A stretch of 57,384 nt of DNA from a virus (lineage: Duplodnaviria > Caudoviricetes). Below, piece after piece: positions 31,801 to 46,689 of this stretch (within the stretch, counting starts at the first letter, position 1; each line of letters opens with the position of its first letter). The translations under genes were made by a program, and so were the position numbers. Under the pieces are notes generated by a model, which saw only the letters and a program-made list of their open reading frames with translations, ran no database searches and was not told the origin of the DNA. The stretch covers positions 1-57,384 of IMG/VR virus record IMGVR_UViG_3300028041_000098; one strand, written 5' to 3'.

Positions 31801-31801
31801 G

Positions 31802-33703
31802 ATGAAGATCTTCGGGGACATCAGTCCCACACCCGACTCAGTCACGAAGAAGATCCCCGCCGGCGGGGTGGCGGCGCGTGATCTGTCGGCCGATGCCGAT
31901 CGCCTCAGCCGACGCGGGGCCTTCGCGGATCAGGGGGCCCCGGCGGCCGGCGCGCGTCCGCACCCGGGCCCGATCCCGGCGTCCGGCGAGACCGGACCCG
32001 CCGAGAACCTGCGGCACGCGCCCATCCGCTGGAATTACCCCTACGCGTATAACCAGGTCTGGACACCGCGCAGCAAGGCCCTCACGCCCTTCGCGGTCCT
32101 GCGCCAGCTCGCCGAAGTCGACGACATCATCCGCATCTGCATCGAGACGCGGAAGGATCAGATGACGTCGCTCGACTGGGACATCGTCCCGCGCGACAAG
32201 AAACAGGGGAGCGGGCTGACGGCGAAGATCCAGCTCGCGCGGGAGTTCTTCGCGCGTCCCGATCGGCGCCGCGATTTCAGCACCTGGTTGCGCATGGCGA
32301 TCGAGGACGTGCTCGTCGTGGATGCGTTGAGCATCTACCGTCGGCGCACGCGCGGCGGCCGGCTGTACGCGCTCGAGCTGAAGGACGGCACGACCTTTCT
32401 GCCGCTCCTCGATGAGGACGGGGATCTGCCGCTGCCGCCGAAGATCGCGTACCGCCAGATCATCAACGGCGTGCCGATGGAGGGCGGCGACTGCACGGTC
32501 GACGAGCTGATGTACCGCCCGCGGACCGTCCGGACGCACACGCCGTACGGCCTCTCGCCCACCGAGGCGGTCCTGCTGACGGTGAACGCTGCGCTGAGTC
32601 GGCAGGTGTTCAACCTGCAGTACTACACCGAGGGCAACGTGCCCGAAGGGCTCCTCGAGGTACCGAGCTCCTTCACGACCACGCAGCAGATGGCCGACTT
32701 CCAGGAATACCTGGACGACTATCTCGCCGGGCTCGACAACCTCGGGCGGCGTCGGCGCCTGAAGGTCGTCGGGTCCGGCAGCAAGGTCCATGAGTTCAAG
32801 GAGCCGGATTTCACCAGCGTGTACGACGAGTGGCTCCTGAAGGTCCGCTGCGCCGCGTTCGCGGTCCCGCCGCAGGAAGTCGGATTCACGGCCGACGTGA
32901 ACAAGGCCACGGGCGAGCAACAGGAAAACGTCGCCTACCGCCGCGGCGTGAAGCCACTCGGCCGGTTCTTCAAGGGCATCTTCGACGAGGCCCTCGTCGC
33001 GATGGATGCGGCGGAGCTCGAATGGGTGTGGACGGGTGGCGAGGTCGAAGACAAGCTGAAGCAGGCCCAGGCCGACAGGATCTACGTCTCGATGGGGAAG
33101 ACGAGCGTCGACGAGCTGCGGTCGCGCGATGGCCAGGAGCCGATCGGCCTGGGGCCCTACATCGAAACCGCGATGGGCCCCATCTTCGTCGACGAGCTGC
33201 TCACCGGTCGTGACCCCGACGCGGACCTGACCACGACCGACGGCGGTCGGACGCCGGCGGGCGAGACGCTCGACGGCGACGCGAAGACCACGCCCTCTGG
33301 GAAGGGTGCCGCGCAGGCGCTCGCCGAGGCGCAGGAGGACGGCGCCGAGAAGCTGTCCGACGCGGCGCTCGCTGATCTGCGGAAGTGGCGCGCGTGTGCC
33401 ATCAAGGCCGTGAAGGCGGGCCGCGCCGTGCCGGAGTTCGTGTCCGACACCATCCCGCTCGAGCTGCACGTGCGCGTCGAGCGATTCGTCAAGCTGGCGG
33501 CCGCCTCGGGGGACGTCGGGAAGGTCGTCGTCGCCTTCGACCTGGCGATCGCGGATCACCAGGTCACGAAGGCCGGCGAAAGCCGCACCATGACGCGGCT
33601 CGAGCAGCGCGCCGCGAAGGCCTACCAGCGGCTGATGAAGCGGCACTTCAGGGCGCAGGGGCGGGCGCTCGCCGAGCACCTCAAGCAGGGGCTCGGATCA
33701 TGA
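31802..33703 (+). CDS. Portal protein
   Basis: YGLSPTE, YYTEGNVPEG, CAAFAVPPQEVG, DELRSRDGQEP. Confidence 0.92.
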   Translation: MKIFGDISPTPDSVTKKIPAGGVAARDLSADADRLSRRGAFADQGAPAAGARPHPGPIPASGETGPAENLRHAPIRWNYPYAYNQVWTPRSKALTPFAVLRQLAEVDDIIRICIETRKDQMTSLDWDIVPRDKKQGSGLTAKIQLAREFFARPDRRRDFSTWLRMAIEDVLVVDALSIYRRRTRGGRLYALELKDGTTFLPLLDEDGDLPLPPKIAYRQIINGVPMEGGDCTVDELMYRPRTVRTHTPYGLSPTEAVLLTVNAALSRQVFNLQYYTEGNVPEGLLEVPSSFTTTQQMADFQEYLDDYLAGLDNLGRRRRLKVVGSGSKVHEFKEPDFTSVYDEWLLKVRCAAFAVPPQEVGFTADVNKATGEQQENVAYRRGVKPLGRFFKGIFDEALVAMDAAELEWVWTGGEVEDKLKQAQADRIYVSMGKTSVDELRSRDGQEPIGLGPYIETAMGPIFVDELLTGRDPDADLTTTDGGRTPAGETLDGDAKTTPSGKGAAQALAEAQEDGAEKLSDAALADLRKWRACAIKAVKAGRAVPEFVSDTIPLELHVRVERFVKLAAASGDVGKVVVAFDLAIADHQVTKAGESRTMTRLEQRAAKAYQRLMKRHFRAQGRALAEHLKQGLGS

Positions 33704-34182
33704 CGCTGCGGCATGAACCTATCGCGGTGCCGCAGGGCTTTGCCGGCGAAGGGCTGCGCGAGTACCTGCCGATCGCGACCTCGCCGCGCCCGCCGCGCCG
33801 CTGGCCGTGGCTGCTGGCCCTCGTGACGCTGACGTTCATCGTCGGCCTCTGGTGCGGCACGCAGGTCCACGCCGCGAGTTGCCTCACGCTGAAGGTGCGG
33901 CCCCAGGCCATGCTGCGCCGCGGCGACGTGTCGGTCGAGGCGCGGATCCCGCGACACGCCGATCATCGGCTCCTCGCCGTCTCCTGGCTGTCGGAAAACG
34001 GCAAGGACGGCGGCTACCAGGTCCCGCTCGAGGGCGACCAGGCGCCGGCGGTGCGCACGGACTGGCTGCGCGACATGCCGCCGGCGCATTACGTGTTCAC
34101 CGCCGCTGTCATCGATAGCCGCGGCAAGGTGGTCGGTCGTGATCGCGCCGAAATCCTGACGATCGAAGGGGACCCGCGGTGA
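33700..34182 (+). CDS. Exported/membrane-anchored beta-sandwich-like protein
   Basis: RRWPWLLALVTLTFIVGLWCGTQVHA-A then beta-rich domain. Confidence 0.65.
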   Translation: MTLRHEPIAVPQGFAGEGLREYLPIATSPRPPRRWPWLLALVTLTFIVGLWCGTQVHAASCLTLKVRPQAMLRRGDVSVEARIPRHADHRLLAVSWLSENGKDGGYQVPLEGDQAPAVRTDWLRDMPPAHYVFTAAVIDSRGKVVGRDRAEILTIEGDPR

Positions 34183-34781
34183 AGACCATCCGCCAGATCG
34201 CCGACATCACCCCCGATCCGCACAACGCGAACAAGGGCACGAAGCGCGGTCACGATCTTCTGGAGCGCTCGATCGAGCGCAACGGCGCCGGGCGATCCAT
34301 CGTCGTCGATCGGCACGGCGTGATCATCGCCGGCAACAAGACCTGGGAGATGGCCGGCCAGGCGGGCCTCGACGTCGAGGTCGTCAGGACGGACGGCCGG
34401 AAGCTCGTCGTCGTGCAACGCATGGATCTGGATCTCGCGAGCGGGACGGACGCGCGTGCGCGGGAGCTGGCGATCGCCGACAACCGGACGAGCGAGGTCA
34501 GCCTCGACTGGGATCCGAACGTCCTGCTCCACCACGTGCCCGGCGTCAGCCTGTCGGAGTACTTCTTCGACCGCGAGCTCGCGCGGATCCTCGGGGAGGC
34601 CGACGAGAAGGGGGAGCTGGCCCCGCTCCCGGACAACACCAAGCGGACGAGGGGACCCTCCGAAGAGTGTGAAAAACCGGAAGCCGGCCGCTCGATCGAG
34701 CCGGACGCGGCCGCAGCGCCGGCGCACGATCCCGCCGACGAGGACCAGACGATCTGCCCGGAGTGCGGACACACATGGTGA
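34179..34781 (+). CDS. Stand-alone ParB-like domain protein
   Basis: TPDPHNAN...GAGRSIVVD...IIAGN...LAIADNR; paralog of MTase N-terminus. Confidence 0.8.
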   Translation: MKTIRQIADITPDPHNANKGTKRGHDLLERSIERNGAGRSIVVDRHGVIIAGNKTWEMAGQAGLDVEVVRTDGRKLVVVQRMDLDLASGTDARARELAIADNRTSEVSLDWDPNVLLHHVPGVSLSEYFFDRELARILGEADEKGELAPLPDNTKRTRGPSEECEKPEAGRSIEPDAAAAPAHDPADEDQTICPECGHTW

Positions 34782-35209
34782 GGACCGTCGGACGGGTCGG
34801 GACGGCGATCGCCGCGGTGGCCTGGTTCACCGTGCTGGTGGTCGTGCTCGGCACGATCCTGCTGCTGAAGGGATGCGGCCGCGTCGTCCAGCGTCTGCGC
34901 CGGCGGCCGCCGGTACCGGTACCGCCGATCGACGACCGGCTCCTCGTGCCGCGGCCGGCGCCGGCGAAGATCAGCGCTGTGCCGCTGCCCTGTCGCTGGT
35001 GCGGTCGCACCACGTTTCATCTGCGTCGGCGTAGCGCCTTCGTGTGCGAGTTCCAAGCGGAGCACCACGCCACGGAAGCCTACCGGATGCTGGCCGCGGC
35101 GATGCCGCACGCGGACCTGTTCCCTGGCTGCGTGTGCGCGCCGGGCGAGCGCACGCTGTTCGAGGGCAAGCCGGATCCGTTCTGCTTCGCGCTGGAGCAC
35201 CGGCCGTGA
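34775..35209 (+). CDS. Membrane-anchored Cys-containing protein
   Basis: One TM helix; overlaps both neighbours. Confidence 0.55.
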   Translation: MVRTVGRVGTAIAAVAWFTVLVVVLGTILLLKGCGRVVQRLRRRPPVPVPPIDDRLLVPRPAPAKISAVPLPCRWCGRTTFHLRRRSAFVCEFQAEHHATEAYRMLAAAMPHADLFPGCVCAPGERTLFEGKPDPFCFALEHRP

Positions 35210-35832
35210 TCGTCGAGAAGAAGGACCCGCCGAAAAAGCGGCCGATCACTGCGAAGCAGCTGCGCGCGCTCGTGAAATCCTTCCCCTGGGCCGAGTGGAA
35301 CCAGCAGCTCGCTCCGGAGCTCGAGCAGGTGTATCGCGATCTCGTGGTCGGCCAGGGGACCGCCGCGGCCGCGGCGCACGACGTCACGTTCAATCAGGAC
35401 GACCCGTTCCTGCAGAAGCACATGACGGCATACCTCGGCGAGCGGATTACACAGTTGTCGCGGACATCACAAAAAGACGTGATCCGCACCGTCACCCGGG
35501 CGCTCGAGGGCGGCGACGACCTGACGCCGGCGACGCTCGCCGATCGCATCCTCGGGGCCGTGCGCAAGACCTACGAGCACTACGAGGTCTTCCGCGCGCT
35601 GCGGATCGCGCGGACCGAGAGCGCGATCGCCTACAACCACGGGGCGGTCCTCGGCGCCGAGCAGGCGGGGTTCAAGAGCTTCGAGGTCATCGATGGCACC
35701 GACGATCCGGAGTGCGCCGCCGCCAACGGGCAGGTGTGGAGCGGGACGAAGTGCCTGAACAACCCGATCGCGCACCCGAACTGCGTGCGGGCCTTTTTCC
35801 CGGTCGAGGAGGAGGAGTCGGACCGGGAATGA
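35206..35832 (+). CDS. Mu gpF/SPP1 gp7-like minor head protein
   Basis: RALRIARTESAIAYN...C...NG...HPNCVR. Confidence 0.88.
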   Translation: MIVEKKDPPKKRPITAKQLRALVKSFPWAEWNQQLAPELEQVYRDLVVGQGTAAAAAHDVTFNQDDPFLQKHMTAYLGERITQLSRTSQKDVIRTVTRALEGGDDLTPATLADRILGAVRKTYEHYEVFRALRIARTESAIAYNHGAVLGAEQAGFKSFEVIDGTDDPECAAANGQVWSGTKCLNNPIAHPNCVRAFFPVEEEESDRE

Positions 35833-35865
35833 ACCTTGCCCTGAGAGAGGGCTCATTCAGATTTC

Positions 35866-36028
35866 AGGTCGTCGGTCCGCCCGGGCCTCATGAACCCGGG
35901 TTGCGGCAGTGGGGCTCTCCGCTGCCAGGATCGACAACGCCAGAGGAGAGCCGCGAGCTAGAGCCGCTCGCACCCGGCGCCCGCAGCGCGATCTGCGGCC
36001 GCGGCCGGTTGCGGCGGCTTTTTGTTTG
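35866..36028 (+). ncRNA. Structured leader RNA, copy 1 (before prohead protease)
   Basis: Multi-stem junction with UCAUGA-loop hairpin, then AGAGCCGC...GCGGCUUUU hairpin; homologous to 43845-44007. Confidence 0.55.
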
Positions 36029-36054
36029 GCGGCTCCGTTTCTCACGAGGCACTC

Positions 36055-37713
36055 ATGAACGCAGGCCAGGTGATCGAGCAGGACATCCCCGTCCACTTCT
36101 CCGTCCGCATCGCGAAGGTCGACAAGGAGAAGCGGGAGGTCGAGGGGATCTGCACGCAGGAGGTGGTCGACGTCCACGGCGAAGTGGTCGATCACGAGTC
36201 GATGAAGGCCGTCCTCCTGGAGTGGCCGGGCAACATCCGTGAGATGCACCAGCCGATCGCCGTCGGCAAGGCGGTGCGGGTGGAAAGCGACGACGCGGCG
36301 AAGGCCACGATCCTCCGCGCGCGGATCTCGAAGGGCGCGCCGGACACCTGGGCGAAGGTCGAGGACGGCACCCTCTCGATGTACTCCATCGGCGGTACCG
36401 GCAAGCGCGTCATCTCGAAGAAGGCGGACGGCAGCGAGGAGAAGCGGATTTTCCTCAACAAGCTCCACGAGATCTCGCTCGTCGACAGCGGCGCCTGCCC
36501 GACGGCGAGGTTCGAGGTCGTGAAGATGGTCGACGGTCACCCGACGGACGTGCAGCCGGAGGACGTCGAGAAGGGCGACGAGGCCTGCGCCGACTGCCAG
36601 AAGGCGAAGGCGGATTGCACGTGCAGCGCCGACAAGGCCGCGCAGCCGCGCGTGCTCGTCGTGCCGGCTCAGTTCGCGGAGCTGCTGGCGAAGCTCGCCG
36701 ACGCGCCCCGCGCCCTCGAGGTCCTGAAGGCCGCCGAGCCGAAGCTCACGGCACCGCTGCCGGAGGTCCCCGCCGGATCGGTCGAGAAGCGGTCCTACCC
36801 GACCCCCTACAACATCGAGCAGACGCTCGGCGCGATCGCGCTGCTCGAGCGGATCCTCGCCGAGGAGTGGTGGAAGGCCCGCGACGCCGAGAGCGCCGAC
36901 GAGGACGCCACGACCGACAAGGCGCAGCTGCAGGTCCTGCGAACCGCGATCGAGCTCGTGATCGCGTACCTGCTGTCCGAATTCAACGCGCAGTTCGCGG
37001 ACTTCGACGCCGAGGCCGCCGGCGTCTCGATCGAGAACGCGGCGATCACCCGCCGCGCGGCGCTCGTCGAGCAGGCCGCGTTCGCGCTGCCGATCGTCTT
37101 CCAGAAGCTCGATCACACCGGCCAGCTGTGGATCGCCAAGGCGGGCGCCCGCCACTCGAAGGCGGACACCCAGATGATCCAGGCGATGCACGACACGGCG
37201 GTCACGCTCGGCGCCACGGATTGCGCGAAGTGCGTCGAGTCCGCCACGAAGCGCGCCGACGGCACGCCGGCGACGCCCGTCCAGCAGGCCGCCGGCCTCG
37301 ACACCGAGGCCGTGCAGGCGATCGTGAAGGCAGCCGTCGACCAGGCGCTGCAGGCTCACAAGGCGACGTCCGACGAGGCGATGCGCGCGCAGAAGGCGGC
37401 ATCCGACGCGGCGATCGCGGAGCTGCAGGCGCGCGTCGAGAGGCTGTCGAACGAACCCGCGCCCGGCGGGCCGAAGGCCCGGGCCACCGGCACCGAGGGC
37501 ACGCCGGTGCACAAATCGATCGGCAACACCGGCCTCGCGGATTTCGCCGGGGTGGACCCGGCTGCCGTGGAGGCGTTCGCCCAGCAGCTGGCCAAGGACG
37601 CCAAGACCCAGGAGGAGCGCGATCGCATCGCCGAGAACCTCCTGAAGTTCCACCACACGACTGGCGCCGGCGCCGTCGTGATGCGGCAGTCGGAATCGCG
37701 CCGGCCATCCTGA
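36055..37713 (+). CDS. Prohead protease fused to scaffold
   Basis: NIREMHQPIAVGK, YSIGG, EISLVD; Ala-rich coiled-coil C-terminus. Confidence 0.88.
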   Translation: MNAGQVIEQDIPVHFSVRIAKVDKEKREVEGICTQEVVDVHGEVVDHESMKAVLLEWPGNIREMHQPIAVGKAVRVESDDAAKATILRARISKGAPDTWAKVEDGTLSMYSIGGTGKRVISKKADGSEEKRIFLNKLHEISLVDSGACPTARFEVVKMVDGHPTDVQPEDVEKGDEACADCQKAKADCTCSADKAAQPRVLVVPAQFAELLAKLADAPRALEVLKAAEPKLTAPLPEVPAGSVEKRSYPTPYNIEQTLGAIALLERILAEEWWKARDAESADEDATTDKAQLQVLRTAIELVIAYLLSEFNAQFADFDAEAAGVSIENAAITRRAALVEQAAFALPIVFQKLDHTGQLWIAKAGARHSKADTQMIQAMHDTAVTLGATDCAKCVESATKRADGTPATPVQQAAGLDTEAVQAIVKAAVDQALQAHKATSDEAMRAQKAASDAAIAELQARVERLSNEPAPGGPKARATGTEGTPVHKSIGNTGLADFAGVDPAAVEAFAQQLAKDAKTQEERDRIAENLLKFHHTTGAGAVVMRQSESRRPS

Positions 37714-37774
37714 GGACCTGCACGCACACAGTTTCGCCGCGTCGCCGCGGCATGGAGTCACGGAGTACACGACC

Positions 37775-39184
37775 ATGAAGAACATCCAGGAGCTCACCCA
37801 GGAGGCGGTGACGAAGATCACCGAGATCCTGAAAGGCGGAGGCGAGCCGTACAGCTCCGTCCGCAAGGAAGTCAACACCGCCACCGGCCTGGTGGCGTAC
37901 AACCTCGAGCCGATCGCGCGGCTCCTCCAGCCGGCGTACTCGCCGCTGCGCAACCGCATCCCGCGCGTCGGGAACACGAAGGGCGGCACCGCGGTCAACT
38001 GGAAGGTCATCCGGTCGCTCGACACCGCGAAGTCGGCCGTCTTCACCGCGGAAGGGGTCAAGGCGGCGAAGGTGTCGGTCACGGTGACCGACAGGAACGC
38101 CGCGTTCAAGACGATCTCCCTCGGCGACGAGGTGACGTTCAAGAGCCAGTGGGCTGGCCGCTCGTTCGAGGACGTGAAGGCGCGGACCATCCAGCGGTTG
38201 CTGAAGACCGGGATCATCCGCGAGGAGCAGGGGATCCTCGGCGGCCGCAACGCGGCGCTGCCGGCGGTGACCAACCCCACGGTCGCCGTCATCAACGGCG
38301 GCGGCACGGTGGCCGACGCGACGTACAACGTGCACGTGCGCGCCGTGGGCCACATGCCGGGCGAAGGCCTGACGGCCAAGGGCCGCTTCTCGGCGGCGGT
38401 GTCCACCGGTGCCGTGGCCAACGGCAACGACTCGATCATCACGGCCTCGGTGCCGTACGTCGAGGGGGCGAGCCGCTACGAGTGGTACGTCGGCGTGGGC
38501 GCCGACGCCAACTGCCGCCTCGAGGCGGTGACCCGCATCAACAGCGTCGCGATCAGCGCGCTGAAGGGCACCGGCGTCGACGTCGCGGCCGTGAAGGCGG
38601 CCGACACCGGCAACGGCGGTGACGTGCTGGCGTTCGACGGGCTGTTCGCGCAGCTCGACGGCCAGTTCAACATCAACAAGACCCTGCCGACCGGCGTCCT
38701 GGGCACCGGCACGCAGCTGTCGCTCGACGACGTCGACGGCGTCCTGCAGAACATGTGGGACGAGTACCGGACGGATCCGGACCTGATCTCGGTGAACTCC
38801 GAGGAGTCCATCAAGATCACGCAGCTCGTGCTCGCCGCCAACGGCGGCCCGACGCTGTACGTCACGCGGAACGACGACCAGTCGTCCGTCACCGGCGGCT
38901 ATCGGGTGACGCACTACATCAACAAGGCGACCGGGAAGGCCATCCCGATCGAGGTGCACCCGTACCAGCAGCAGGGGACGATCGGGATCTTCACGTTCGA
39001 GATGCCGTTCTCCGCGAGCGACATCGACAACCCGATCGAGATCGAGACGCTCCAGGAGTGGATGCAGATCGACTACCCGCCGACCCGTCCGGCGTGGGAC
39101 TTCGAGGTCCTCGTCGACGAGGCGGTGAAGATCTACTTCCCCGGCGCCAATGCGGTGATCCGGAACATCGCCCGTCGGGCGTAG
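37775..39184 (+). CDS. Major capsid protein with internal FN3/Ig-like insertion
   Basis: Position after protease; SPLRNRIPR, EEQGILGG, LAFDGL, IEVHPY; beta-rich insert with YNVHVRAV...VEGASRYEWYVG. Confidence 0.85.
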   Translation: MKNIQELTQEAVTKITEILKGGGEPYSSVRKEVNTATGLVAYNLEPIARLLQPAYSPLRNRIPRVGNTKGGTAVNWKVIRSLDTAKSAVFTAEGVKAAKVSVTVTDRNAAFKTISLGDEVTFKSQWAGRSFEDVKARTIQRLLKTGIIREEQGILGGRNAALPAVTNPTVAVINGGGTVADATYNVHVRAVGHMPGEGLTAKGRFSAAVSTGAVANGNDSIITASVPYVEGASRYEWYVGVGADANCRLEAVTRINSVAISALKGTGVDVAAVKAADTGNGGDVLAFDGLFAQLDGQFNINKTLPTGVLGTGTQLSLDDVDGVLQNMWDEYRTDPDLISVNSEESIKITQLVLAANGGPTLYVTRNDDQSSVTGGYRVTHYINKATGKAIPIEVHPYQQQGTIGIFTFEMPFSASDIDNPIEIETLQEWMQIDYPPTRPAWDFEVLVDEAVKIYFPGANAVIRNIARRA

Positions 39185-39195
39185 ATCGCGATCGT

Positions 39196-39233
39196 GAGGC
39201 TCGGTTCCTGGCGCGCGCTGGGAGCCGAGCCTT
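39196..39233 (+). terminator. Long hairpin after capsid gene (weak U-tract)
   Basis: GAGGCTCGGTTCCTGGCG / CGCTGGGAGCCGAGCCTT. Confidence 0.5.
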
Positions 39234-39270
39234 CCGGTCTGTCGGCTCCCCCTCTTCACAAGGCGTACTG

Positions 39271-39648
39271 ATGCGTCGTCATCGTTCTCCCGGACCGCGG
39301 GCGCGGCTGATCGCCCTGACCATCGGCGGCGCCGTGTGCGCCCTGATGGCGGTGCTCGGCGCCCAGCAGGTGATCTCGCGCGAAACGCTGACCATCACGG
39401 ACCAGCCCACGCGGATCGCGCCGGCGACGATCACCACAGCCACGGGCGAAGTCGCGCGCGAGTGCCGCGGCCGCCTCGAAACCGCGCAGGTCCGGTACTG
39501 GACCAGTGCGACGCCCACGGCGTCGGACGGGATCCTGCTGGAGGTCGGCGACACGATCGTGATTCGCGGTACCTCGAATCTGGAAACCTTCCGCGCCATT
39601 CGCACCGGCGCGACGAGCGGCAAGTTGCCGCTGGAGTGTGCACGATGA
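39271..39648 (+). CDS. Signal peptide + small beta protein (head decoration/spike base-like)
   Basis: n/h/c regions ending VLGA-QQ; VRYW...PTASDGILLEVGD. Confidence 0.7.
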   Translation: MRRHRSPGPRARLIALTIGGAVCALMAVLGAQQVISRETLTITDQPTRIAPATITTATGEVARECRGRLETAQVRYWTSATPTASDGILLEVGDTIVIRGTSNLETFRAIRTGATSGKLPLECAR

Positions 39649-40016
39649 CCTTCCGCGCCGTCTGGACGATTGTGATGTGCTGCAGCCTGCTGAGTGCCGC
39701 GTCGGCGCAGCAAGCTGCGGCGCCGTCGGAGGCACCGGCCAAGCCGACCCTGACGCGGGAACTGGAGCTCGAGCTCGAAGTGTTTGCGCTCACGGTCGAG
39801 AACGCGCAGCTGCGCGCCAACCTCGCCAAAGCCTCGAACGACGCGCTCGCGCTCGAAGCGCAGCTCCTCACCCAGCAGCTCACGGCCCGACAGAAGACCC
39901 TCGGCGAGAAGATGGTGCGCGCCCTCGGCGGGGACCCGGAGAAGGGCGACACGTTCGACTGGCAGACGAAGACGCTCGTGCGCGCGCCGACGCCGCCGAA
40001 AGGGCAGGAGCCGTGA
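39645..40016 (+). CDS. Signal peptide + coiled-coil protein
   Basis: MTFRAVWTIVMCCSLLSAASA-QQ. Confidence 0.75.
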   Translation: MTFRAVWTIVMCCSLLSAASAQQAAAPSEAPAKPTLTRELELELEVFALTVENAQLRANLAKASNDALALEAQLLTQQLTARQKTLGEKMVRALGGDPEKGDTFDWQTKTLVRAPTPPKGQEP

Positions 40017-41209
40017 GACGGACCGTCCTCGCGCTCGCGCTCGTCGTAGCCGTCGTCCGCCCAGCGGCCGGACAGGTGGAGATCATCCCGGCACGCGCGA
40101 CGCTCGCCATCCCCGGCGTCGACACCCAGGTCATCTTCAACGACGGCGGGACGTTCGGGGCGACATCCGGCCTGACGTTCAACAAGACGACTGACATCCT
40201 CTCAATCGGCGCGGCCGTCCGCGTGGGCGATGGCAGCGCGTCCGCGCCGTCCTTCACCTTCGGCAATAGCACAAACACGGGTTGGTATCGGGCCAGCAAC
40301 CAAGTGAACCTCGCCATGAGCGGGGTGAATGCGCTCTTGATTGAGAACGGCGGGAGCGGTTCGACGTGGACGCAGTTCCGAAGTGGGACGAGCTATCTCT
40401 ATCTCGGTTCGGGTGGTGCGACCCAACTCACACTAACGTCGGGATCAGTCCAGATTGCGTCGGCAAGCAATCTGTCGTGGGGGACGCCGGGAGGATCGTC
40501 GGATCTCACCGTTGTGCGCGATGCCGCGGACACCCTCGCGCTGCGGCGCGGGGCGAACGCGCAGACGTTCAGACTCTATGGCACGTTCACAGACGCGAGC
40601 AACTACGAACGACTCCACGCAGGGTGGGACGGCGACCGCTTCTCGGTGATGGTGCAGCAGGCAGGCACCGGCACGGCTCGCGCAATGCGCTTCGGAACGG
40701 CAGGAAACGCAGCCATTCAGTTCCGCACGAACAATACCGACCGTTGGACGATCAATGGCAGCGGCCATTTGCTTGCGGACGCCGACAACACTTACGACAT
40801 CGGCGCGAGCTTAGCAAATAGACCGCGAAATCTGTTTATCGGCGGCTTTCAAAGTCTGGCTGGCGTGTTGTATTTCACCAGCAGGAGCGCAATTTCCAGC
40901 CCTAGTGACGGGGTTCTACGCCTCACGAATAACGCTGAAAACGATTTCAACCGCCTCCAGTTCGGCGGCACGACGAGCAGCTTCCCGGGGCTGAAGCGAA
41001 ATGGAGCGGAACTCCAAGTGCGTCTTGCTGACGACTCTGTGTTTGCCAGCTTCCAGTCGATGTATCAGCGCGTGGGGTCTGGCTCTCCTGAAGGTGCTGT
41101 CACTGCTCCCGTAGGGGCGATCTACCACCGCACCGATGGCGGTGCAGGCACGAGCCTCTACGTCAAGGAATCGGGGACCGGAACCAACACCGGCTGGGTC
41201 GCCAAGTAA
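40013..41209 (+). CDS. Signal peptide + fibre/spike-like protein
   Basis: MRRTVLALALVVAVVRPAAG-Q; G/S/T/N-rich fibre repeats; C-terminal GSGSPEGAVTAPVGAIYHRTDGGAGTSLYVKESGTGTNTGWVAK. Confidence 0.8.
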   Translation: MRRTVLALALVVAVVRPAAGQVEIIPARATLAIPGVDTQVIFNDGGTFGATSGLTFNKTTDILSIGAAVRVGDGSASAPSFTFGNSTNTGWYRASNQVNLAMSGVNALLIENGGSGSTWTQFRSGTSYLYLGSGGATQLTLTSGSVQIASASNLSWGTPGGSSDLTVVRDAADTLALRRGANAQTFRLYGTFTDASNYERLHAGWDGDRFSVMVQQAGTGTARAMRFGTAGNAAIQFRTNNTDRWTINGSGHLLADADNTYDIGASLANRPRNLFIGGFQSLAGVLYFTSRSAISSPSDGVLRLTNNAENDFNRLQFGGTTSSFPGLKRNGAELQVRLADDSVFASFQSMYQRVGSGSPEGAVTAPVGAIYHRTDGGAGTSLYVKESGTGTNTGWVAK

Positions 41210-41219
41210 AGGAACACAT

Positions 41220-41507
41220 ATGCCTCGCATCACGCTCGAAGTCGATCTCACGGACGAGCAGCTCGCCGGGCTCGCGCACGCCATTCAGCGATCGGGCGCG
41301 GATCCGGCGCCGTCGCCCTCCGCGTATCTGCATGCGCGTGTGCAGGACCTCGTGACGAGCTACGCGCAGGCGCGTACAGCGGAGATCGCGCGGCAGTCGA
41401 TCGAGCCGATGATCCCGGCCTTCATCGCGGCGCCCCCCGGTCTCAAAGCGCAGGTCCTGCCCCTGCTGGAGGAGGCACGGCAGCTGTTGGGGGTGCCGAC
41501 GACGTAA
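41220..41507 (+). CDS. Small fibre-associated protein (chaperone-like)
   Basis: AAGGA RBS; resembles 53760-54044. Confidence 0.7.
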   Translation: MPRITLEVDLTDEQLAGLAHAIQRSGADPAPSPSAYLHARVQDLVTSYAQARTAEIARQSIEPMIPAFIAAPPGLKAQVLPLLEEARQLLGVPTT

Positions 41508-41643
41508 CGAGATCGCGACGGCGTGTCGGCGGGTCGGGGCCCCGGCAGCACGCACGAGCGGTGCACCGCAGACAGGCGCCGGGCCCTCCTGGGTGAAAGC
41601 AGGATCCCGGCGCCTGCGGTGCGACAGAGGAGACCAACGAATC

Positions 41644-42081
41644 ATGCAGCCGATCTTCGAAGTACCGGTTCCTGGGCGATGCGACGAGGTGCGCGTCGGT
41701 GGCGACGTGTATCCCGTCTTCACGCCGCACAAGTATCTCGGCCGGACGTGCCGCCGCGCCGCCCTCGTGGAAGCGCCGCTCGAGGTGGGCGTGCAGCAGG
41801 GCTGGACCCGGCGGATCGACGTCGAGGCCGGCCGGAAGGCGTACTACCTGGCGCTGGGCGCGGCCGCGGCCGACGCGATGCGGCAGGCCGATGCCGAGGG
41901 TCTCGACGCGGAGCGCCAGGCGCGCGAGGACGCGGAGCGCCAGGCGCGCGAGGCGGAAGACGCCGCCCGGGCAGCCGCGCAGCCCGACCCGGCGGCCGAC
42001 GCCGCATCGAGCGCCGCGCCGAGCGAGCCGGCGCCGGCGACGCCGCCCGCCACGAATGGTCGCCGGAGCCAGCGGCGGTAG
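41644..42081 (+). CDS. Hypothetical protein
   Basis: GAGGAG RBS after structured intergenic region. Confidence 0.65.
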   Translation: MQPIFEVPVPGRCDEVRVGGDVYPVFTPHKYLGRTCRRAALVEAPLEVGVQQGWTRRIDVEAGRKAYYLALGAAAADAMRQADAEGLDAERQAREDAERQAREAEDAARAAAQPDPAADAASSAAPSEPAPATPPATNGRRSQRR

Positions 42082-42084
42082 CCC

Positions 42085-42642
42085 ATGGACCCGCTCGCGC
42101 TGTTCGACCTGCCGGCGTTGAAGGCGCACTGCAAGATCTCCGCGGCAGACGGGACGCGCGACGCGATCCTGTCGGTCATCGGCAACGCCGCCTCGGCGTA
42201 CTGTGAGGCGCGCGTCGGCCAGCAGTTCAAGCCGCGCGTCTACACGATCGAGCGCAGCGGCGACGGCACGACGAAGCTCCTCCGGCTGCCGCGGCCGATC
42301 ATCTCGGTCGAGAGTCTGTCCGTGGACGGGATGGACATCGCGCCGTCGGAGTACTTCGTGTACGCGGAGGCCGGCAAGATCCAGCTGCGCACGCGGACGT
42401 TCCGCGCCGGCGTCGGCAACGTGCGGGTGATCCTCAACGCGGGCTACGACGAGACGCACCCGCGGCGCCGGCAGATCACCGCGGCCGCGCTCGACCTGGC
42501 GAAGAGCCACTACGACGAGTGGGACGCCAATGCCATCTCGGCGACGTCGATCTCCGTCGGCCCGCAGTCGATGGTGATCCGGCCGGGGCTGAACCCGCGC
42601 ATCGAGAAGTTCCTCGACTCGATCCGGGACGTGAGGGGGTAG
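42085..42642 (+). CDS. Head-tail adaptor (gp6/gp15-like)
   Basis: LKAHCKI...D..L...AASAYCE...PIISVESL...NVRVILNAGY. Confidence 0.85.
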   Translation: MDPLALFDLPALKAHCKISAADGTRDAILSVIGNAASAYCEARVGQQFKPRVYTIERSGDGTTKLLRLPRPIISVESLSVDGMDIAPSEYFVYAEAGKIQLRTRTFRAGVGNVRVILNAGYDETHPRRRQITAAALDLAKSHYDEWDANAISATSISVGPQSMVIRPGLNPRIEKFLDSIRDVRG

Positions 42643-42644
42643 GC

Positions 42645-42707
42645 ATGCGAACGCTGTCATTCATCGTGATGGTGCTGATCGCCGCGATGCATCCGCTGTT
42701 CGGGTAG
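42645..42707 (+). CDS. Possible 20-aa hydrophobic micro-ORF (MRTLSFIVMVLIAAMHPLFG)
   Basis: GAGGGG RBS; fills the gap between neck genes. Confidence 0.4.
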   Translation: MRTLSFIVMVLIAAMHPLFG

Positions 42708-42714
42708 CGACGCG

Positions 42715-43377
42715 ATGGAATTGCGGCTCAAGGCAGGCGAGGTCGTCTCCGACTACGGCCAGGCGTCGAAACTGATCGGGGCGAACATCGTCCGGCAGCT
42801 GCGCACGATCGGCGCAGCCCTGATCCGGATCATCGCCCGCGACAAGCTCTCTGGCGGCGGCGCCGCGGGGACCGGTGCGGCGCTGACGCGGCGGACCGGC
42901 ACGCTCACGCGCGCGCTGTTCTGGAAGTTGCGGCTCGACGGCAAGGACGCGGTCCTGATCGTCGGCGCCGACGGGAAGAAGGCCGCGTACGCCGCGATCC
43001 AGGAGGAAGGCGGGACCGTGCGCCCGGTGCACGCCGAGAACCTGACGGTGCCGCTCGAGGCGGCACGGACGGCGAAGGGCGTCGCCCGGTTCAGCGCGCG
43101 GCAGCTCTTCGACAATCCGCAGTCCGTCGGCTACGTCGACGCGTTCACGGCCAAGGGCGTGATCTTCGGCGTGAAGCAACGGAAGCGGAAGGGTGAGGCG
43201 GTCGACGGCTACGGGTCGATCGAGGCGCTCTTTGCGCTCAAGAAGCAGATCACGATTCCGGGGCGCCACTACATGCGGGACACCGTGCAGGAGCGCCGGG
43301 CGTGGATCCTCGAGCAGCTGGGCGCGGCGGCGGCGGACGGCGCGAACGGTGAGAAGACCGCTGGGAGCGACGGATGA
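42715..43377 (+). CDS. Neck/tail completion protein (HK97 gp10-like)
   Basis: RRTGTL...YAAIQEEGG...ITIPGRHYM. Confidence 0.75.
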   Translation: MELRLKAGEVVSDYGQASKLIGANIVRQLRTIGAALIRIIARDKLSGGGAAGTGAALTRRTGTLTRALFWKLRLDGKDAVLIVGADGKKAAYAAIQEEGGTVRPVHAENLTVPLEAARTAKGVARFSARQLFDNPQSVGYVDAFTAKGVIFGVKQRKRKGEAVDGYGSIEALFALKKQITIPGRHYMRDTVQERRAWILEQLGAAAADGANGEKTAGSDG

Positions 43378-43844
43378 TCTTCGACACGAAGCGCGGCAAG
43401 GCCCTGAAGGCGATCGCCGATCGGCTCCGCGCCATGACGGTGGCGACCGGGTACCACTGGGACGTCCGGCCCGGATCGGTATACACCGACCCGGTCAACC
43501 TGCTGGCGATCTCCGGGACCGAAGCGCCGCTGTTCCTGGTGGAGCTCTCGGAGAACAGCCGCGAGTTCCTGCCGGCGAACGAGCTCGAAGACGAATTTGA
43601 CGTCCTGATTACAGGGCTGGTGGAGGCGCCGGGCACCGCGCCCGACCGCAAGGTGATCGCCGGCGAGAACCTGATCGGCGACGTCGAACGGACGCTGTGC
43701 GTCGACGTGACGCTCGGCGGGCAGCTGTTCGATCTGCGCGTGGTGCACGCCGATCCGCCGCTGGCCGGCATGGGGACGCAGTCCAAGGTCGTGGTGTTGG
43801 TGACGGTCCGCTGCAGCCAGCATCGGCAGCACGGCGCACCGTAG
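43374..43844 (+). CDS. Tail terminator protein
   Basis: GY...P.F.V...LIGDVERTL..DVTLGG; position. Confidence 0.75.
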   Translation: MIFDTKRGKALKAIADRLRAMTVATGYHWDVRPGSVYTDPVNLLAISGTEAPLFLVELSENSREFLPANELEDEFDVLITGLVEAPGTAPDRKVIAGENLIGDVERTLCVDVTLGGQLFDLRVVHADPPLAGMGTQSKVVVLVTVRCSQHRQHGAP

Positions 43845-44007
43845 CGGTTGTTGGAGATCGCCAGGCGCGGGCGTCATGACCCCGCGTCCGCGCGCGCCCG
43901 TCGCGCTGGCGCCTCTCCCGAGTCACGGGTAGCGAGTTCGAGAGCCACCTCGCCCGCGGTCCGGCGCGTATGTCGCCGGCGCCCGCGGCTGGGTGGCTTT
44001 TCGTTTT
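43845..44007 (+). ncRNA. Structured leader RNA, copy 2 (before tail-tube module)
   Basis: UCAUGA-loop hairpin within junction, then AGAGCCAC...GUGGCUUUU hairpin. Confidence 0.55.
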
Positions 44008-44020
44008 GAGGAGGACACAC

Positions 44021-44305
44021 GTGCGACTGATGCGCTGCGCCTTGAGTTCGGTGTCGGAAATCTCCCTCAGCTACGGCGAGTTCAGCCGCGAGCTGGGCGG
44101 GGGCGCGGTGGTCGATTTCGACCAGGTCGTCGGGCGCCAGGCGGCCGTGACCGACGTCGACGGCCGCGAGCTCGCGCCGGCTCGGTCCGTCACGATCGAG
44201 GACCTGCTGGCCGGCCGGCTGGAATGCTTCGTGCCGGTGGAGGCAGCATCCCCGCAGGAGCGGCCGCGGCTGACGCCGGCGGCCACCGACGACGTCGAGG
44301 AGTAA
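44021..44305 (+). CDS. Small protein preceding tail tube
   Basis: GAGGAGG RBS, GTG start. Confidence 0.7.
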   Translation: MRLMRCALSSVSEISLSYGEFSRELGGGAVVDFDQVVGRQAAVTDVDGRELAPARSVTIEDLLAGRLECFVPVEAASPQERPRLTPAATDDVEE

Positions 44306-44349
44306 CAAACGACGCGCGCGCGAGGCGTGCGCCCCAGGAGTAGACCGCA

Positions 44350-45492
44350 ATGCGACAGGTAGGACGTCTCGGACGATTGCTCGCCTTCGAGGAAGCCGCG
44401 TACGGCGACACGCCGGCGCTGCTCGCCACGATGGCGGTGCGGCACCTCAATTTCACCGCCGAGTACCAGCCGCGGAACCGGGTGCCGAGCGAAGAAAAGA
44501 AGGCCACCCGTGGCCGCAAAGTGCGCTTCGATCGCGCGCGGACCGCAGGCTTCGATCTCACCGCGATCCTGCGCCCGTCGGGCACGATCGGCACGATCCC
44601 CGAGGCGCACACGCTGCTGCGACACGGGTTCGGGGCCGCGATCGTCGGCACGCTGAACGGCACGGTCGCGGCCGCGGCGTCGACGACCGTGTTCACGCTG
44701 CAGGCCGGCGAAGGCGCGAGCGTCGTCGCGGGCGAGTTCGTCAGCGTCCGTCGCGCGGCCAACGGCAACGTGCCCGAGGCGCGTCGCGTCCTCTCGAAGG
44801 CCGGCGACGAGCTGACGCTCAATGCGCCCCTCGGCGGGATTCCCGCGGCGAATGACACGGTCAAGGCGGGGGTGACGTACCGATTCGGCGCGCTCGCGAA
44901 GTCGATCGGATTCGCCCACTACCTGACGGACCTGAAGCGCACCGTCAAGGGCGGGCTCCCGAACGAGCTGACGCTCAGCTTCGAGCGCAACAAGGAGCCC
45001 GAGTTCCGCCTCGCAGGTCCGGCGCAGCAGGCCCCGCGCGGCGCCGCCGCGCTCCCCGGCTTCACGACGGTCGGTTCGCAGAACCCCCCGTCGGGGCTCG
45101 CCGGCAGCGGCCTGATTGTCAACGGCGTCGCGCGAAAGTTCATGAAGTGCGAGGTCTCGATCGATCTCGGCCGGGAGCTCATCTCGGAAAACTACGGGAC
45201 GTCGATGGCCGAGGCCTTCGACGAGCCGGACTTCCGTGACGTGACGTTCTCGTTCGAACGGCGCGCCGACACGGACTACACCCTGTACGACCTGGCGGAG
45301 GACGGTGCGCTGTTCGACTTGCTCCTGCAGACGGGGCTCACGGAAGGCAACATCGTCGCGATCCACGCGCCGAAGGCCGAGATCGAGCACGTGCCGCAGC
45401 TGCCGGACGACAACGGCGTGCTGACGCACAGCTTCGCCGGCGTGCTGAACGAGAACGCCGGCGACGACGAAGTCGCGCTCGGCCTGCTGTAG
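44350..45492 (+). CDS. Major tail (tube) protein
   Basis: EEAAYGDTP N-terminus, beta-rich; position before chaperone and tape measure. Confidence 0.82.
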   Translation: MRQVGRLGRLLAFEEAAYGDTPALLATMAVRHLNFTAEYQPRNRVPSEEKKATRGRKVRFDRARTAGFDLTAILRPSGTIGTIPEAHTLLRHGFGAAIVGTLNGTVAAAASTTVFTLQAGEGASVVAGEFVSVRRAANGNVPEARRVLSKAGDELTLNAPLGGIPAANDTVKAGVTYRFGALAKSIGFAHYLTDLKRTVKGGLPNELTLSFERNKEPEFRLAGPAQQAPRGAAALPGFTTVGSQNPPSGLAGSGLIVNGVARKFMKCEVSIDLGRELISENYGTSMAEAFDEPDFRDVTFSFERRADTDYTLYDLAEDGALFDLLLQTGLTEGNIVAIHAPKAEIEHVPQLPDDNGVLTHSFAGVLNENAGDDEVALGLL

Positions 45493-45498
45493 ATCGTC

Positions 45499-45612
45499 AT
45501 GTGCGAGCACCCGACGCATCTGTCGCCGACAGATCGTGTGCTCTTGAGACAGCTCCGGATCGCCGCCTGGACGTGCCCACGCTGCGCGCCACCTGGCGAT
45601 CCAGAGGAATAG
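45499..45612 (+). CDS. Possible 37-aa Zn-binding microprotein (MCEHPTHLSPTDRVLLRQLRIAAWTCPRCAPPGDPEE)
   Basis: Manual translation; CxH...CxxC; no clear SD. Confidence 0.4.
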   Translation: MCEHPTHLSPTDRVLLRQLRIAAWTCPRCAPPGDPEE

Positions 45613-45769
45613 GTTCGCAACACCAGTTCGTTCGCTGACGCGGGGCCCACCTTGTCCAGGGGAGAGGGTTCCGCGTCCCCCTCGCGAACGCCTCGTCGGT
45701 CCCTCGGCAGCCGTCGTGTCGCTGCCGTCATCCCACGATCCATCGTTCGACGTCCCCGGAGGAAGCGCC

Positions 45770-46414
45770 GTGAAAGTTGCCAGTTCATATCCGACCACCC
45801 TCTACATCGACGGGGAGCCGCTGCGGCTCCGCGTGAAGAAGCTCACGCGCGAGCAGTGGATCGACTTCAGCGCGGAGATGGAGCGCAGCGGCCGCCTGCT
45901 GCGCGGCCGCGAGCTCCTCCTGAAGGACCGGCAGCCGGGGGAGGACGGACTCACGAGCGAACAGGTGGAGGCGAAGCGGTTCATGGCGCTGTCGCTGCAC
46001 GAGCGCGAGGCGCAGCTCGAAGCGGAAAAGGCCGAGGAGTTGCGGGCCGCCGCGTTCACCGACGCGTCCATTTCGGCCTACGTCACCGCCGAGGCCGACG
46101 CCCTGTACGACGAGGAGGCGGGCCGCTACGTGACGGACGGCGCTGACATCGTGCGCCTCTTCGGGCAGCGTCCCGACGTGCTGGCGGAGATCCTGACGGC
46201 CGTCCTCCTCGAGAACCGCCTGTCCGCCGAGCAAAAAAAAACCTTGCAGGTGCTGCGCGCTTCTCAGCGTGGCTCGAGCGGCAGAGCAGTGGCGCCTGGC
46301 ACGACACCGGACTCGACTGCGGCGCCTGCCGAGAGCGAAGCCTCTGCGGCGAGCGCGGATGCGACGGGGTCGCCCGAGACGAGCCCGTCTGGAGCGACGG
46401 CCCCCTCGAGCTGA
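45770..46414 (+). CDS. Tail assembly chaperone (gpG-like)
   Basis: GGAGG RBS; LSAEQKK at slippery A9 run. Confidence 0.85.
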   Translation: MKVASSYPTTLYIDGEPLRLRVKKLTREQWIDFSAEMERSGRLLRGRELLLKDRQPGEDGLTSEQVEAKRFMALSLHEREAQLEAEKAEELRAAAFTDASISAYVTAEADALYDEEAGRYVTDGADIVRLFGQRPDVLAEILTAVLLENRLSAEQKKTLQVLRASQRGSSGRAVAPGTTPDSTAAPAESEASAASADATGSPETSPSGATAPSS

Positions 46415-46686: not shown

Positions 46687-46689
46687 ACG

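Follow-up and report, generated by a model that had tools for sequence, protein, structure and literature searches.

A conserved structured RNA leader with a long predicted terminator before the head genes of related phages

How transcription is admitted into the late structural genes is, to our knowledge, understood for no more than a handful of model phages (lambda Q, P2 Ogr, Mu C, T4 and T7), and we know of almost nothing comparable for the high-GC soil phages that dominate metagenomes. The question is raised by a soil provirus record from IMG/VR, referred to here as the window, by which we mean the whole stretch of 57,384 bases that was analysed (68.7% GC, with nearly all genes on the + strand). 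Two intergenic regions (IGRs) interrupt its structural genes: IGR1 (35833-36054, + strand), between the head-morphogenesis and the protease/scaffold genes, and IGR2 (43845-44020, + strand), which holds a second, weaker copy of the same arrangement. A first-pass annotation of this DNA had described both as one structured leader with a palindromic UCAUGA loop, and had proposed that it acts in cis to set the stoichiometry of the structural proteins. Do these regions hold a real RNA element, is it shared with other phages, and could it control entry into the head genes? We find that IGR1 is a real, conserved structured element, and that the earlier observation and its interpretation are, taken overall, partly confirmed.

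The IGR1 leader and its relatives

The whole of IGR1 is predicted to fold at -119.7 kcal/mol (z -4.07), and 0 of 200 shuffled sequences fold as well. Its 5' domain is a three-way junction in which an outer stem, P0, encloses the TCATGA hairpin (P1), as the first-pass annotation had stated, together with a second hairpin (P2) that was absent from it. This junction is both the minimum free energy (MFE) structure and the centroid, and again none of 200 shuffles reaches its fold energy (z -3.43). The parts of the element are listed here; L072 and G001 are two relatives introduced below.

35867-35941, + strand: 5' domain, a three-way junction closed by P0 (35871-35878 with 35928-35935)
35879-35901, + strand: hairpin P1, stem GCCCGGG/CCCGGGU with the 9-nt loop CCUCAUGAA; pair probabilities 0.99-1.0
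35905-35926, + strand: hairpin P2 of the predicted folds, apex GGGGCUCUCC; its GGCUCUCC is complementary to GGAGAGCC (35945-35952)
35940-35971, + strand: conserved block CCAGAGGAGAGCCGCGAGCUAGAGCCGCUCGC, consisting of a linker, two GAGCCGC repeats and a small hairpin, H; near-invariant in the window, L072 and G001
35953-35958 with 35966-35971, + strand: hairpin H, GCGAGC with GCUCGC, present in folds of the nascent transcript until the terminator displaces it
35960-36029, + strand: predicted intrinsic terminator, a 25-bp hairpin closed by AGAGCCGC/GCGGCUUU and followed by UUUUUGUUUGG
36030-36036, + strand: CGGCUCC, 3' of the U-tract and complementary to GGAGAGCCG; in full-length folds it would lengthen the hairpin to about 40 bp in read-through RNA

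The sequence features on which the first-pass annotation was built are present in both regions. The TCATGA apex motif occurs as GGGCCTCATGAACCC at 35883-35897 and as GGGCGTCATGACCCC at 43869-43883, the long hairpins are closed by AGAGCCGC (35960-35967)/GCGGCTTTTT and AGAGCCAC (43941-43948)/GTGGCTTTT, and both are followed by U-rich tails. The element GCGAGYT is found as GCGAGCT at 35953-35959 and GCGAGTT at 43932-43938, although it follows TCATGA by 65 and 58 nt, not by the roughly 70 nt first given. The 15-nt motif GGGCNTCATGANCCC has two exact occurrences in the window, one per IGR, against 0.01 expected, and 0 of 100 shuffles reach two, a count test that is post hoc because the pattern was derived from those same two sites. 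TCATGA overall is not enriched in the window (13 occurrences against 8.2 expected, with 10 of 100 shuffles reaching 13).

Homologs of the major capsid protein (MCP) in metagenomes are 45-78% identical to that of the window; five of them (P0002, P0003, P0005, P0008 and P0010), on contigs of 11-65 kb, reach 73-78%. A single-protein MCP scan of viral contigs returned no close relatives, and blastn against a phage collection gave no match. Profile-based scans recovered L072, a 14-kb metagenome contig with a 75% identical MCP, as well as L003 and L070, whose MCPs are about 50% identical; a DNA-pattern scan recovered the stretch L216 and, from it, G001, a phage record of 57,992 bases that carries terminal repeats and keeps the gene order of the window, and whose proteins are 67% (terminase large subunit, TerL), 59% (portal), 40-45% (protease) and 40% (MCP) identical to those of the window. 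An element of the IGR1 plan lies between the head-morphogenesis and protease genes in three of three closely related phages, namely the window, L072 and G001. By eye, G001 also carries a small reverse-strand open reading frame (ORF) between the head-morphogenesis gene and the element (L233:9870-10035), which makes this region about 350 nt longer than in the window.

The three-way junction is the MFE structure and the centroid in all three phages (z -3.43 in the window, -1.19 in L072 and -3.41 in G001), and P1 has a pair probability of at least 0.96 in each. The loops are conserved and the stems are not: the UCAUGA loop of P1 and the GGCUCU apex of P2 are invariant, while P0, P1 and the lower part of P2 vary, P0 being GUCGGUCC/GGAUCGAC in the window, UUCAGC/GCUGAA in L072 and UUCAGCGA/UCGCUGAA in G001. 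With IGR2 included, the UCAUGA core is unchanged in four of four P1 copies, where it is centred in loops of 9, 9, 9 and 10 nt, and the stem differs, at times on both sides, as the pairs below show when read from the loop outward.

IGR1 of the window: GC GC GC CG CG CG GU
G001: GC GC GU CG CG GC CG
IGR2 of the window: GC GC GC CG GC CG GU
L072: GC GC CG CG CG CG

A 6-nt self-complementary sequence centred in a loop of about 9 nt is also the form of the kissing-loop hairpin of the HIV-1 DIS type. Downstream of the junction, the three phages share a purine-rich block of about 30 nt, CAGAGGnGAGCCGCGAGCnAGAGCCGCUCG; linker and block together read CAGAGG(A/G)GAGCCGCGAGC(1-2 nt)AGAGCCGCUCG and are invariant save at the positions shown. 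A long terminator with a U-tract follows in all three, its hairpin apex wholly different in each phage, and 3' of the U-tract stands GCGGC(U/C)C, which is able to pair back to GAGCCGC. Thus the claim of a structured cis-acting RNA before the head module finds real support in IGR1, which has the same site and architecture in all three phages, with invariant loops and differing stems. Neither L003 nor L070 has any intergenic space at this position, so the element is confined to the closer clade.

It could be argued that the conserved unit is a DNA site and its RNA structure incidental, the inverted repeats being bound by a late-gene activator, a packaging protein or a recombinase, or else making up a late promoter of a type other than sigma-70. 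The element does head late gene blocks, its GAGCCGC direct repeats and inverted repeats could be protein sites, and a gene resembling a helix-turn-helix (HTH) or sigma region 4 protein stands before TerL. However, the centre TCATGA is invariant while its arms vary, a pattern opposite to that of dimeric DNA sites and characteristic of hairpins in RNA; some stem changes yield G.U pairs, which are unpaired in DNA (P1 of G001, and the long-range helix, described below, of L072 and G001); and a GC-rich hairpin followed by a conserved U-tract on the coding strand marks an RNA terminator. We therefore regard a DNA-level explanation as very remote.

A covariance model, R1, was built from the three IGR1 orthologs only (5' domain and block) and searched against the window and 36 loci, 677 kb in total. 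Apart from the three training sequences, its best matches are as follows, with E-values that are rough owing to a shortened calibration.

L081: 31.1 bits, E 3.8e-4
L206/L208: 22.2 bits, E 0.03
Window IGR2, 43856-43953, full length: 20.9 bits, E 0.057 (677 kb) or 0.0087 (103 kb)
Next best overall: 12.8 bits, E about 3

In a six-sequence alignment fitted to the model, 94.3% of the cells pair, compared with 82.5 (standard deviation 2.1) in shuffles and 33-44% in slid controls, and 8 of 21 pairs change on both sides, a number reached by 0 of 500 shuffles; four of the seven stem pairs of P1 are among those that so change. These pair counts lean towards the tested structure, because the alignment was fitted to it and three of the six rows define it. 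Rfam yielded 0 matches over the whole window at gathering thresholds, and in E-value mode the best score over both IGRs was 15.5 bits against a threshold of 40. A description of the motif was not found in the literature searched: the main text of a survey of IMG/VR phages holds no motif with these features, and a prior listing in its motif tables is possible (PMC10690425). That survey reports thousands of candidate structured RNAs, some of them 5' of capsid or terminase genes, with predicted Rho-independent terminators in 1241 of 8495 (PMC10690425).

The downstream half of the element also extends beyond this clade. GAGCCGC(C)GAGCnAGAGCCGCUCGC with a terminator and a U-tract recurs in two unrelated phage contigs: in L081, directly 5' of a terminase large subunit gene of a different family, and in L206 (identical to L208), an HK97-type phage, where it follows the protease gene and lies directly 5' of that for the major head protein. 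Each of the two has a stem-closed, two-hairpin domain ahead of the block, with GGCUC in the loop of one hairpin, and UCAUGA is found in neither. A segment equivalent to CGGCUCC (GCGGC or GGCGG) is present in L072, G001, L081 and L206. Counting the window, the element stands directly before structural genes in five phage contexts.

These copies were found by pattern scans of viral contigs, whose other matches were coding sequence or simple repeats. One scan gave 25 stretches, of which only L081 is real, the other 24 being coding and without a terminator; another gave 98, in 17 of which a stem of at least 5 bp surrounds TCATGA and in none of which the architecture is present. Among six stretches from a third scan, L081 and L206 (= L208) are real and L204, L205 and L207 are not; among 17 from a fourth, only L081, L206, L208 and L216 are; and in a fifth, of 25, the same four stood against GCCGCAGA tandem repeats and coding matches. 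Five provirus loci that came up (L209, L212, L215, L218 and L222) share an identical stretch, with GAGCTAGAGCCGC after a reverse-strand sequence resembling a tRNA gene, that is unrelated to the element. An origin of the block as a host terminator or REP-like (repetitive extragenic palindromic) sequence was also considered and set aside. The block is missing from all 401 bacterial genomes sampled in one candidate host phylum, that of G002, and from G002 and G003 as well. In those genomes, then, it is no common host terminator, an argument that is weak in that the true host phylum may differ.

A long terminator and its possible regulation

The long 3' hairpins of IGR1 and IGR2 have the hairpin and U-tract of an intrinsic (Rho-independent) terminator, with an unusually long stem. 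In IGR1 the hairpin has 25 bp and -43.8 kcal/mol, including a small side hairpin, and is followed by UUUUUGUUU (36019-36027); in IGR2 it has 23 bp and -41.2 kcal/mol and is followed by UUUUCGUUUU (43998-44007). A terminator consensus scan flags both sites, and a scan of the whole window for hairpins followed by T-runs returns them as the only strong sites on the + strand. G001 has exactly one such strong + strand terminator, at the IGR1 site. Across the elements compared the stems measure 18-28 bp, and equivalent U-tracts follow the hairpins of L072, G001, L081 and L206. Typical terminator stems have been reported at 7-9 bp, and TerR of plasmid pLS20, at 15 bp, as resisting processive antitermination (PMC10325885). 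The first-pass annotation had pointed to a compensatory G-C to A-U change in these stems; the change is there, although a comparison of two sequences in hairpins that are self-complementary anyway proves little by itself. Among the functions it had offered, an attenuator or antiterminator is the natural class, because the long 3' hairpin is a very long predicted intrinsic terminator; a kissing-loop switch and an effect on protein stoichiometry draw no support from the present results.

The terminator is placed 15-30 nt ahead of the ribosome-binding site, the distance from the U-tract to the following start codon is only 15-45 nt, and a scan covering promoters of the sigma-70 type found 0 sites in 30000-49999. 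It follows from these two observations that the downstream protease, scaffold and capsid genes need read-through.

Two sets of pairings are predicted for the leader. In the first, seen when the full-length RNA is folded, the three-way junction stands beside one long hairpin, in which GAGCCGC pairs with GCGGCUC beyond the U-tract and AGAGCCGCUCG with GCGGCUUU. In the second, obtained with RNAalifold for an RNA that ends before the 3' strand of the terminator, P1 is joined by a long-range helix, GGCUCUCC:GGAGAGCC, which opens P2, and by H, which uses part of the terminator 5' strand. H appears in the MFE structure of the nascent transcript in the window IGR1, L072 and G001, and the long-range helix in that of L072; once the 3' strand of the terminator has been made, the terminator replaces H in the nascent folds. 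Two bases of the long-range helix are exchanged (A to G in L072, C to U in G001); each exchange leaves a G.U pair, and such G.U-preserving changes favour pairing in RNA rather than in DNA. As modelled, the two mutually exclusive and conserved pairings are the anatomy of a terminator/anti-terminator pair.

We therefore tentatively favour, at somewhat less than even confidence, the view that IGR1 is a cis-acting leader that gates transcription into the head genes (and here also the tail genes) by means of a conditional terminator; we infer that transcription crosses the element, that it terminates there and that this termination is regulated. In such a scheme, polymerase arriving from the packaging and portal genes, or starting at a promoter that escaped recognition at the IGR's 5' edge, would meet the terminator before the head genes, and in the default state the terminator would form. 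A phage or host factor recognising the invariant loops or the block would then bring about read-through, either by stabilising the GGCUCUCC:GGAGAGCC and H pairing or by making the polymerase resistant to the terminator, in the manner described for N/nut, put and canT (PMC9378689, PMC11658703).

Several observations weigh against such a gate. The terminator, with -41 to -44 kcal/mol and 22-28 bp, overwhelms the alternative hairpin of 6 bp, and since it is far stronger than the anti-terminator, a switch would need an additional stabilising factor. No N-, Q- or LoaP-like antiterminator and no sigma factor was found among the ORFs tested (Pfam, PHROGs, early genes), and long stems are reported to resist processive antitermination (PMC10325885), a property more in keeping with a hard stop than with a regulated one. 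This gene order can also do without the element, which is missing in L003 and L070 (MCPs about 50% identical). The covariation counts come from an alignment fitted to the structure they test, half of whose rows were used to derive it; P0 and P2 are not scorable column by column, since MAFFT shifts their register, and are reported from single-sequence folds; and the family is tiny, with three orthologs, one in-genome copy and two partial relatives.

As for the factor itself, the absence of an antiterminator is not proven, because small basic ORFs without a family match exist. Two of these, 4883-5173 (pI 11.3) and 12464-12985 (pI 10.4), occur in G001 too; neither matches an informative family, and both are candidate nucleic-acid-binding proteins. 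The HTH/sigma-70 region-4-like gene at 28992-29603, also shared with G001 and also matching phrog_645 ('Rnase E'), is the only regulator-like gene near the late region and may be a small terminase or a late regulator.

The same absence of a regulator among the ORFs tested would be expected if IGR1 were a constitutive operon boundary, that is, an unregulated terminator that also stabilises the 3' end of the packaging/portal transcript, with the 5' junction as a 3'-UTR (untranslated region) structure that does not switch. The extended helix of read-through RNA, 30-46 bp, would in that case be an RNase III-type site or a 5' protective hairpin for the capsid mRNA. The stems are indeed far longer than the typical 7-9 bp and the 15 bp of TerR (PMC10325885). 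In addition, the conserved 3' segment (GCGGCUCC or GGCGG) pairs with GAGCCGC only in read-through RNA, which suggests that it works once polymerase has read through; a structural gene that is needed in abundance always follows the element at 15-45 nt; and the reverse-strand ORF inserted just 5' of it in G001 is, by eye, what a transcription-unit boundary would lead one to expect. However, a boundary element leaves the invariant UCAUGA and GGCUCU loops unexplained, it does not account for the exact conservation of the 5' strand GAGCCGCGAGCnAGAGCCGCUCG beside an apex that varies completely, nor for a three-way junction kept through changes of its stems, and the most needed proteins would have a strong stop ahead of their genes and no space for a promoter in between, which is hard to reconcile with their expression. 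We consider the constitutive boundary, the main rival to the gate, somewhat unlikely, yet deserving of serious weight.

Alternatively, the region might be a small-RNA gene, with a promoter at the 5' edge of the IGR, an RNA of 150-160 nt reaching to the terminator, and UCAUGA and/or GGCUC loops acting as trans seeds or kissing loops. A structured body with a terminator and invariant loops makes a compact unit, UCAUGA is self-complementary and exposed in a loop of 9-10 nt, and a short terminated RNA after a lambdoid late promoter has been reported to be a regulatory small RNA (PMC7547250). The sigma-70 scan, however, found no promoter-like site; the distance from the upstream stop codon to the domain, about 15 nt in L081 and about 8 nt in IGR2, leaves no room for an intergenic promoter; a seed of 6 nt is very short; and L081 and L206 lack UCAUGA. 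This makes a small-RNA gene decidedly improbable.

Two further roles for UCAUGA were rejected. A leader peptide beginning at the ATG of the loop would be encoded by ORFs of 23, 18, 12 and 57 codons that yield unrelated peptides and have no Shine-Dalgarno (SD) sequence. The TCATGA at the protease start codon, to which the first-pass annotation had drawn attention, is present in the window (36053-36058) and in only one of the three orthologs, as L072 has CTGATGC and G001 GCATGA at this place, so that it is not a conserved partner for pairing with the loop.

A bolder version of the gate would make IGR1 a member of a new class of late-gene RNA switches, in which a three-way-junction sensor bearing the UCAUGA and GGCUC loops toggles a long-stem terminator through GGCUCUCC:GGAGAGCC and makes head and tail expression answer to a signal from the cell or the phage, no classical N or Q protein being needed. 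Here the UCAUGA loops might kiss, either the head leader with the tail leader or between transcripts. As another option, the UCAUGA hairpin might mimic the anticodon arm of initiator tRNA, which we take it to resemble in its three G-C pairs and its CUCAU-containing loop. We regard a switch class of this kind as improbable.

The weaker copy at IGR2

IGR2 is a weak copy, seen in the window only and of borderline significance as an extra match to the model. Its parts correspond to those of IGR1 as follows.

43866-43886, + strand: P1-like hairpin CGCGGG-CGUCAUGAC-CCCGCG, which contains the exact 15-nt motif; pair probability 0.03
43895-43901 with 43925-43932, + strand: equivalent of the long-range helix, CGCCCGU with ACGGGUAG, from the model-fitted alignment
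43932-43936 with 43949-43953, + strand: equivalent of hairpin H, GCGAG with CUCGC, from the same alignment
43941-44007, + strand: predicted intrinsic terminator, a 23-bp hairpin closed by AGAGCCAC/GUGGCUUU and followed by UUUUCGUUUU

The architecture that the first-pass annotation ascribed to both regions is thus predicted for IGR1; in IGR2 the TCATGA hairpin is possible but is not the predicted fold. Forcing it gives -28.6 kcal/mol against -32.8 for the MFE structure, a cost of 4.2 kcal/mol and a predicted occupancy of 3%. The 5' domain of IGR2 has z -0.52, with 56 of 200 shuffles as good, and the whole region z -0.75. Nor is the two-copy design a conserved feature, as had been supposed. L072 has an IGR2 of only 65 nt, with neither the TCATGA hairpin nor a T-run, and in G001 there is no IGR2, the two flanking genes nearly abutting; among the three phages compared, the two-copy layout is therefore confined to that of the window.

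Could IGR2 then be no homologous copy at all, but an independent terminator that inherited its apex from a short IGR2 of the L072 type and resembles IGR1 by chance or through a short patch transfer, the two-copy design having no function? The terminator apex of IGR2, GCGCGUAUGUCGC, is in fact orthologous to the short IGR2 of L072 (score 34, reached by 0 of 500 shuffles), which itself has no P1. The similarity between IGR1 and IGR2 is modest, since 7 of 500 dinucleotide shuffles score as high (3 of 500 for the 5' halves and 1 of 500 for the 3' halves), and that between IGR2 and the IGR1 of L072 is nil (score 17, reached by 449 of 500). IGR2 also lacks the GGCUC apex and the first GAGCCGC repeat, and the low occupancy of P1 and the unremarkable z of its 5' domain point the same way. 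Against an independent origin, the exact 15-nt motif occurs at these two sites only; P1, the long-range helix, H, AGAGCCRC and the U-tract follow in the same order and spacing; the model built from IGR1 alone ranks IGR2 as the best new match in the window, over its full length and at 20.9 bits against 12.0 for the next; and the long-range helix is kept with a different sequence, other complementary segments being aligned at its place. We think that an unrelated terminator is rather unlikely. If the gate proposed for IGR1 exists, IGR2 would be a diverged or partly assembled second copy that places the tail genes, in this phage alone, under the same kind of control.

There may also be a translational layer at this site. 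CCUCUCC (43913-43919) pairs either with GGAGA of the outer stem (43853-43857) or with the SD sequence GAGGAGG (44008-44014) of the following gene, which encodes 94 amino acids, and the full-length fold of IGR2 picks the pairing with the SD sequence. In contigs from four soil-metagenome DNA runs compared with 35000-44999, no variant letters or indels are listed inside IGR1 or IGR2, and the listed variants belong to coding sequence (at 36174-36240 and other places). The contigs of run X2 break within the IGR2 TCATGA hairpin, one stopping at 43870 and its successor beginning at 43897; this gap is covered only by a 77-nt contig (43841-43893) and may be an assembly fork.

Gene context, known systems and significance

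Pfam and PHROG matches show that the head and tail-tube modules flanking the two regions had been assigned correctly. An integrase lies at the left end of the window, no tRNA or tmRNA was found in it, and the genes around the two regions are these.

28992-29603: HTH/sigma-70 region-4-like gene, directly 5' of TerL
29600-31399: terminase large subunit
31802-33703: portal
34179-34781: ParB-like gene
35044-35832, + strand: head-morphogenesis (MuF-like) gene, the last of the packaging/portal block before IGR1 (phrog_2468, E 2.1e-13)
36055-37713, + strand: head protease/scaffold gene (ATG 36055; phrog_9427, head maturation protease, E 1.2e-24; SD GAGG 36046-36049)
37775-39184, + strand: MCP gene (Pfam SU10_MCP; phrog_13692, E 7.2e-91)
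39185-42084: 2.9-kb stretch without ORFs of high third-position GC (GC3), between the MCP and adaptor genes
42085-42642: head-tail adaptor
42715-43377: neck protein
43374-43844, + strand: gene for 156 amino acids in the head/neck module, ending just 5' of IGR2 (high-GC3 ORF; homologs in L072 and G001)
44021-44305, + strand: gene for 94 amino acids (GTG 44021; SD GAGGAGG 5' of the gene, from 44008)
44350-45492, + strand: tail tube gene (Pfam Phage_tube_2, E 2.7e-11)
46690-50058: tape measure

At the place of the 2.9-kb stretch, L072 and L074 hold only about 400 nt. Its GC falls to 0.58-0.63 at 40300-41200, its ORF 39638-41209 has only weak fibre-like PHROG matches, and it is probably an inserted gene or moron. 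On the minus strand, at about 11720-11790, a long hairpin made of tandem GGAACCGTTCCC-type repeats stands ahead of a T-run.

A structured leader followed by a terminator in a late phage region appears to be a kind already known; what this case seems to add is clean conservation and a long stem at an unexpected place, although the family is small. Like the long-stem terminator TerR of pLS20, the element has a GC-rich hairpin with a U-tract on the coding strand and, further 5', a purine-rich stretch that could pair with this tract (PMC10325885). Unlike TerR, its stems measure 18-28 bp rather than 15 bp, it lies inside a structural cluster before essential genes and not at an operon end, and its predicted terminator comes with an invariant 5' block and a conserved three-way junction attached.

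Among antitermination systems, putL and putR of HK022 are comparable in that two similar copies per genome, RNAs of about 70 nt with two stem-loops, act in cis in the nascent transcript, 5' of the terminators to be read through (PMC9378689). The put RNAs are situated just 3' of early promoters and act on RNA polymerase without a phage protein (PMC9378689). Here, by contrast, a third stem closes the two hairpins (domains of 62-77 nt), the location is the late structural region, the element has its own fused terminator, and one copy only is conserved among relatives while the second is weak; the likeness to put is one of description only. With N/nut of lambda it has in common a hairpin with a specific loop, a conserved linear element and two copies, each before terminators (PMC9378689, PMC11658703). 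In lambda, a phage protein on the nascent RNA gives timed read-through; the present location is late rather than early, and neither boxA/boxB nor, among the ORFs tested with Pfam and PHROGs, an N-like protein was identified here. In Tn916, canT and the insulator terminator T1 also concern a mobile element, with terminators silencing integrated genes and a cis RNA that lets the element's own transcripts pass; canT is about 452 nt long, far from T1 and beside a defined promoter, whereas the 62-77-nt domain here abuts its terminator (PMC11658703).

The PR'-tR' leader of lambdoid phages offers a further parallel, as it is a short leader that ends in a terminator right before the late genes and whose terminated product can be a regulatory RNA (PMC7547250). 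It needs a constitutive promoter and the DNA-binding protein Q, while here no sigma-70-like site was found in 30000-49999 and no Q homolog among the ORFs tested. We know of no requirement for a conserved three-way junction in the lambdoid late leader. In its general plan the element recalls riboswitch and attenuator platforms, where a junction-containing 5' domain precedes a terminator whose 5' strand can pair otherwise and two exclusive sets of helices are conserved; it differs from them in having no known ligand class and no Rfam match, in preceding structural rather than metabolic genes, and in an alternative hairpin that is far weaker. The candidate structured RNAs surveyed in IMG/VR belong to the same category and come from the same data source, being covarying intergenic structures at most 25 nt from the starts of structural genes (PMC10690425).

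With clear boundaries, invariant loops and no match in Rfam, the element is a candidate for a new RNA family. If its terminator is regulated, phages of unrelated lineages would have in common a compact RNA gate directly before their capsid genes, and a long-stem terminator of 20-28 bp in the middle of an essential gene cluster would provide a direct test case for resistance to antitermination.

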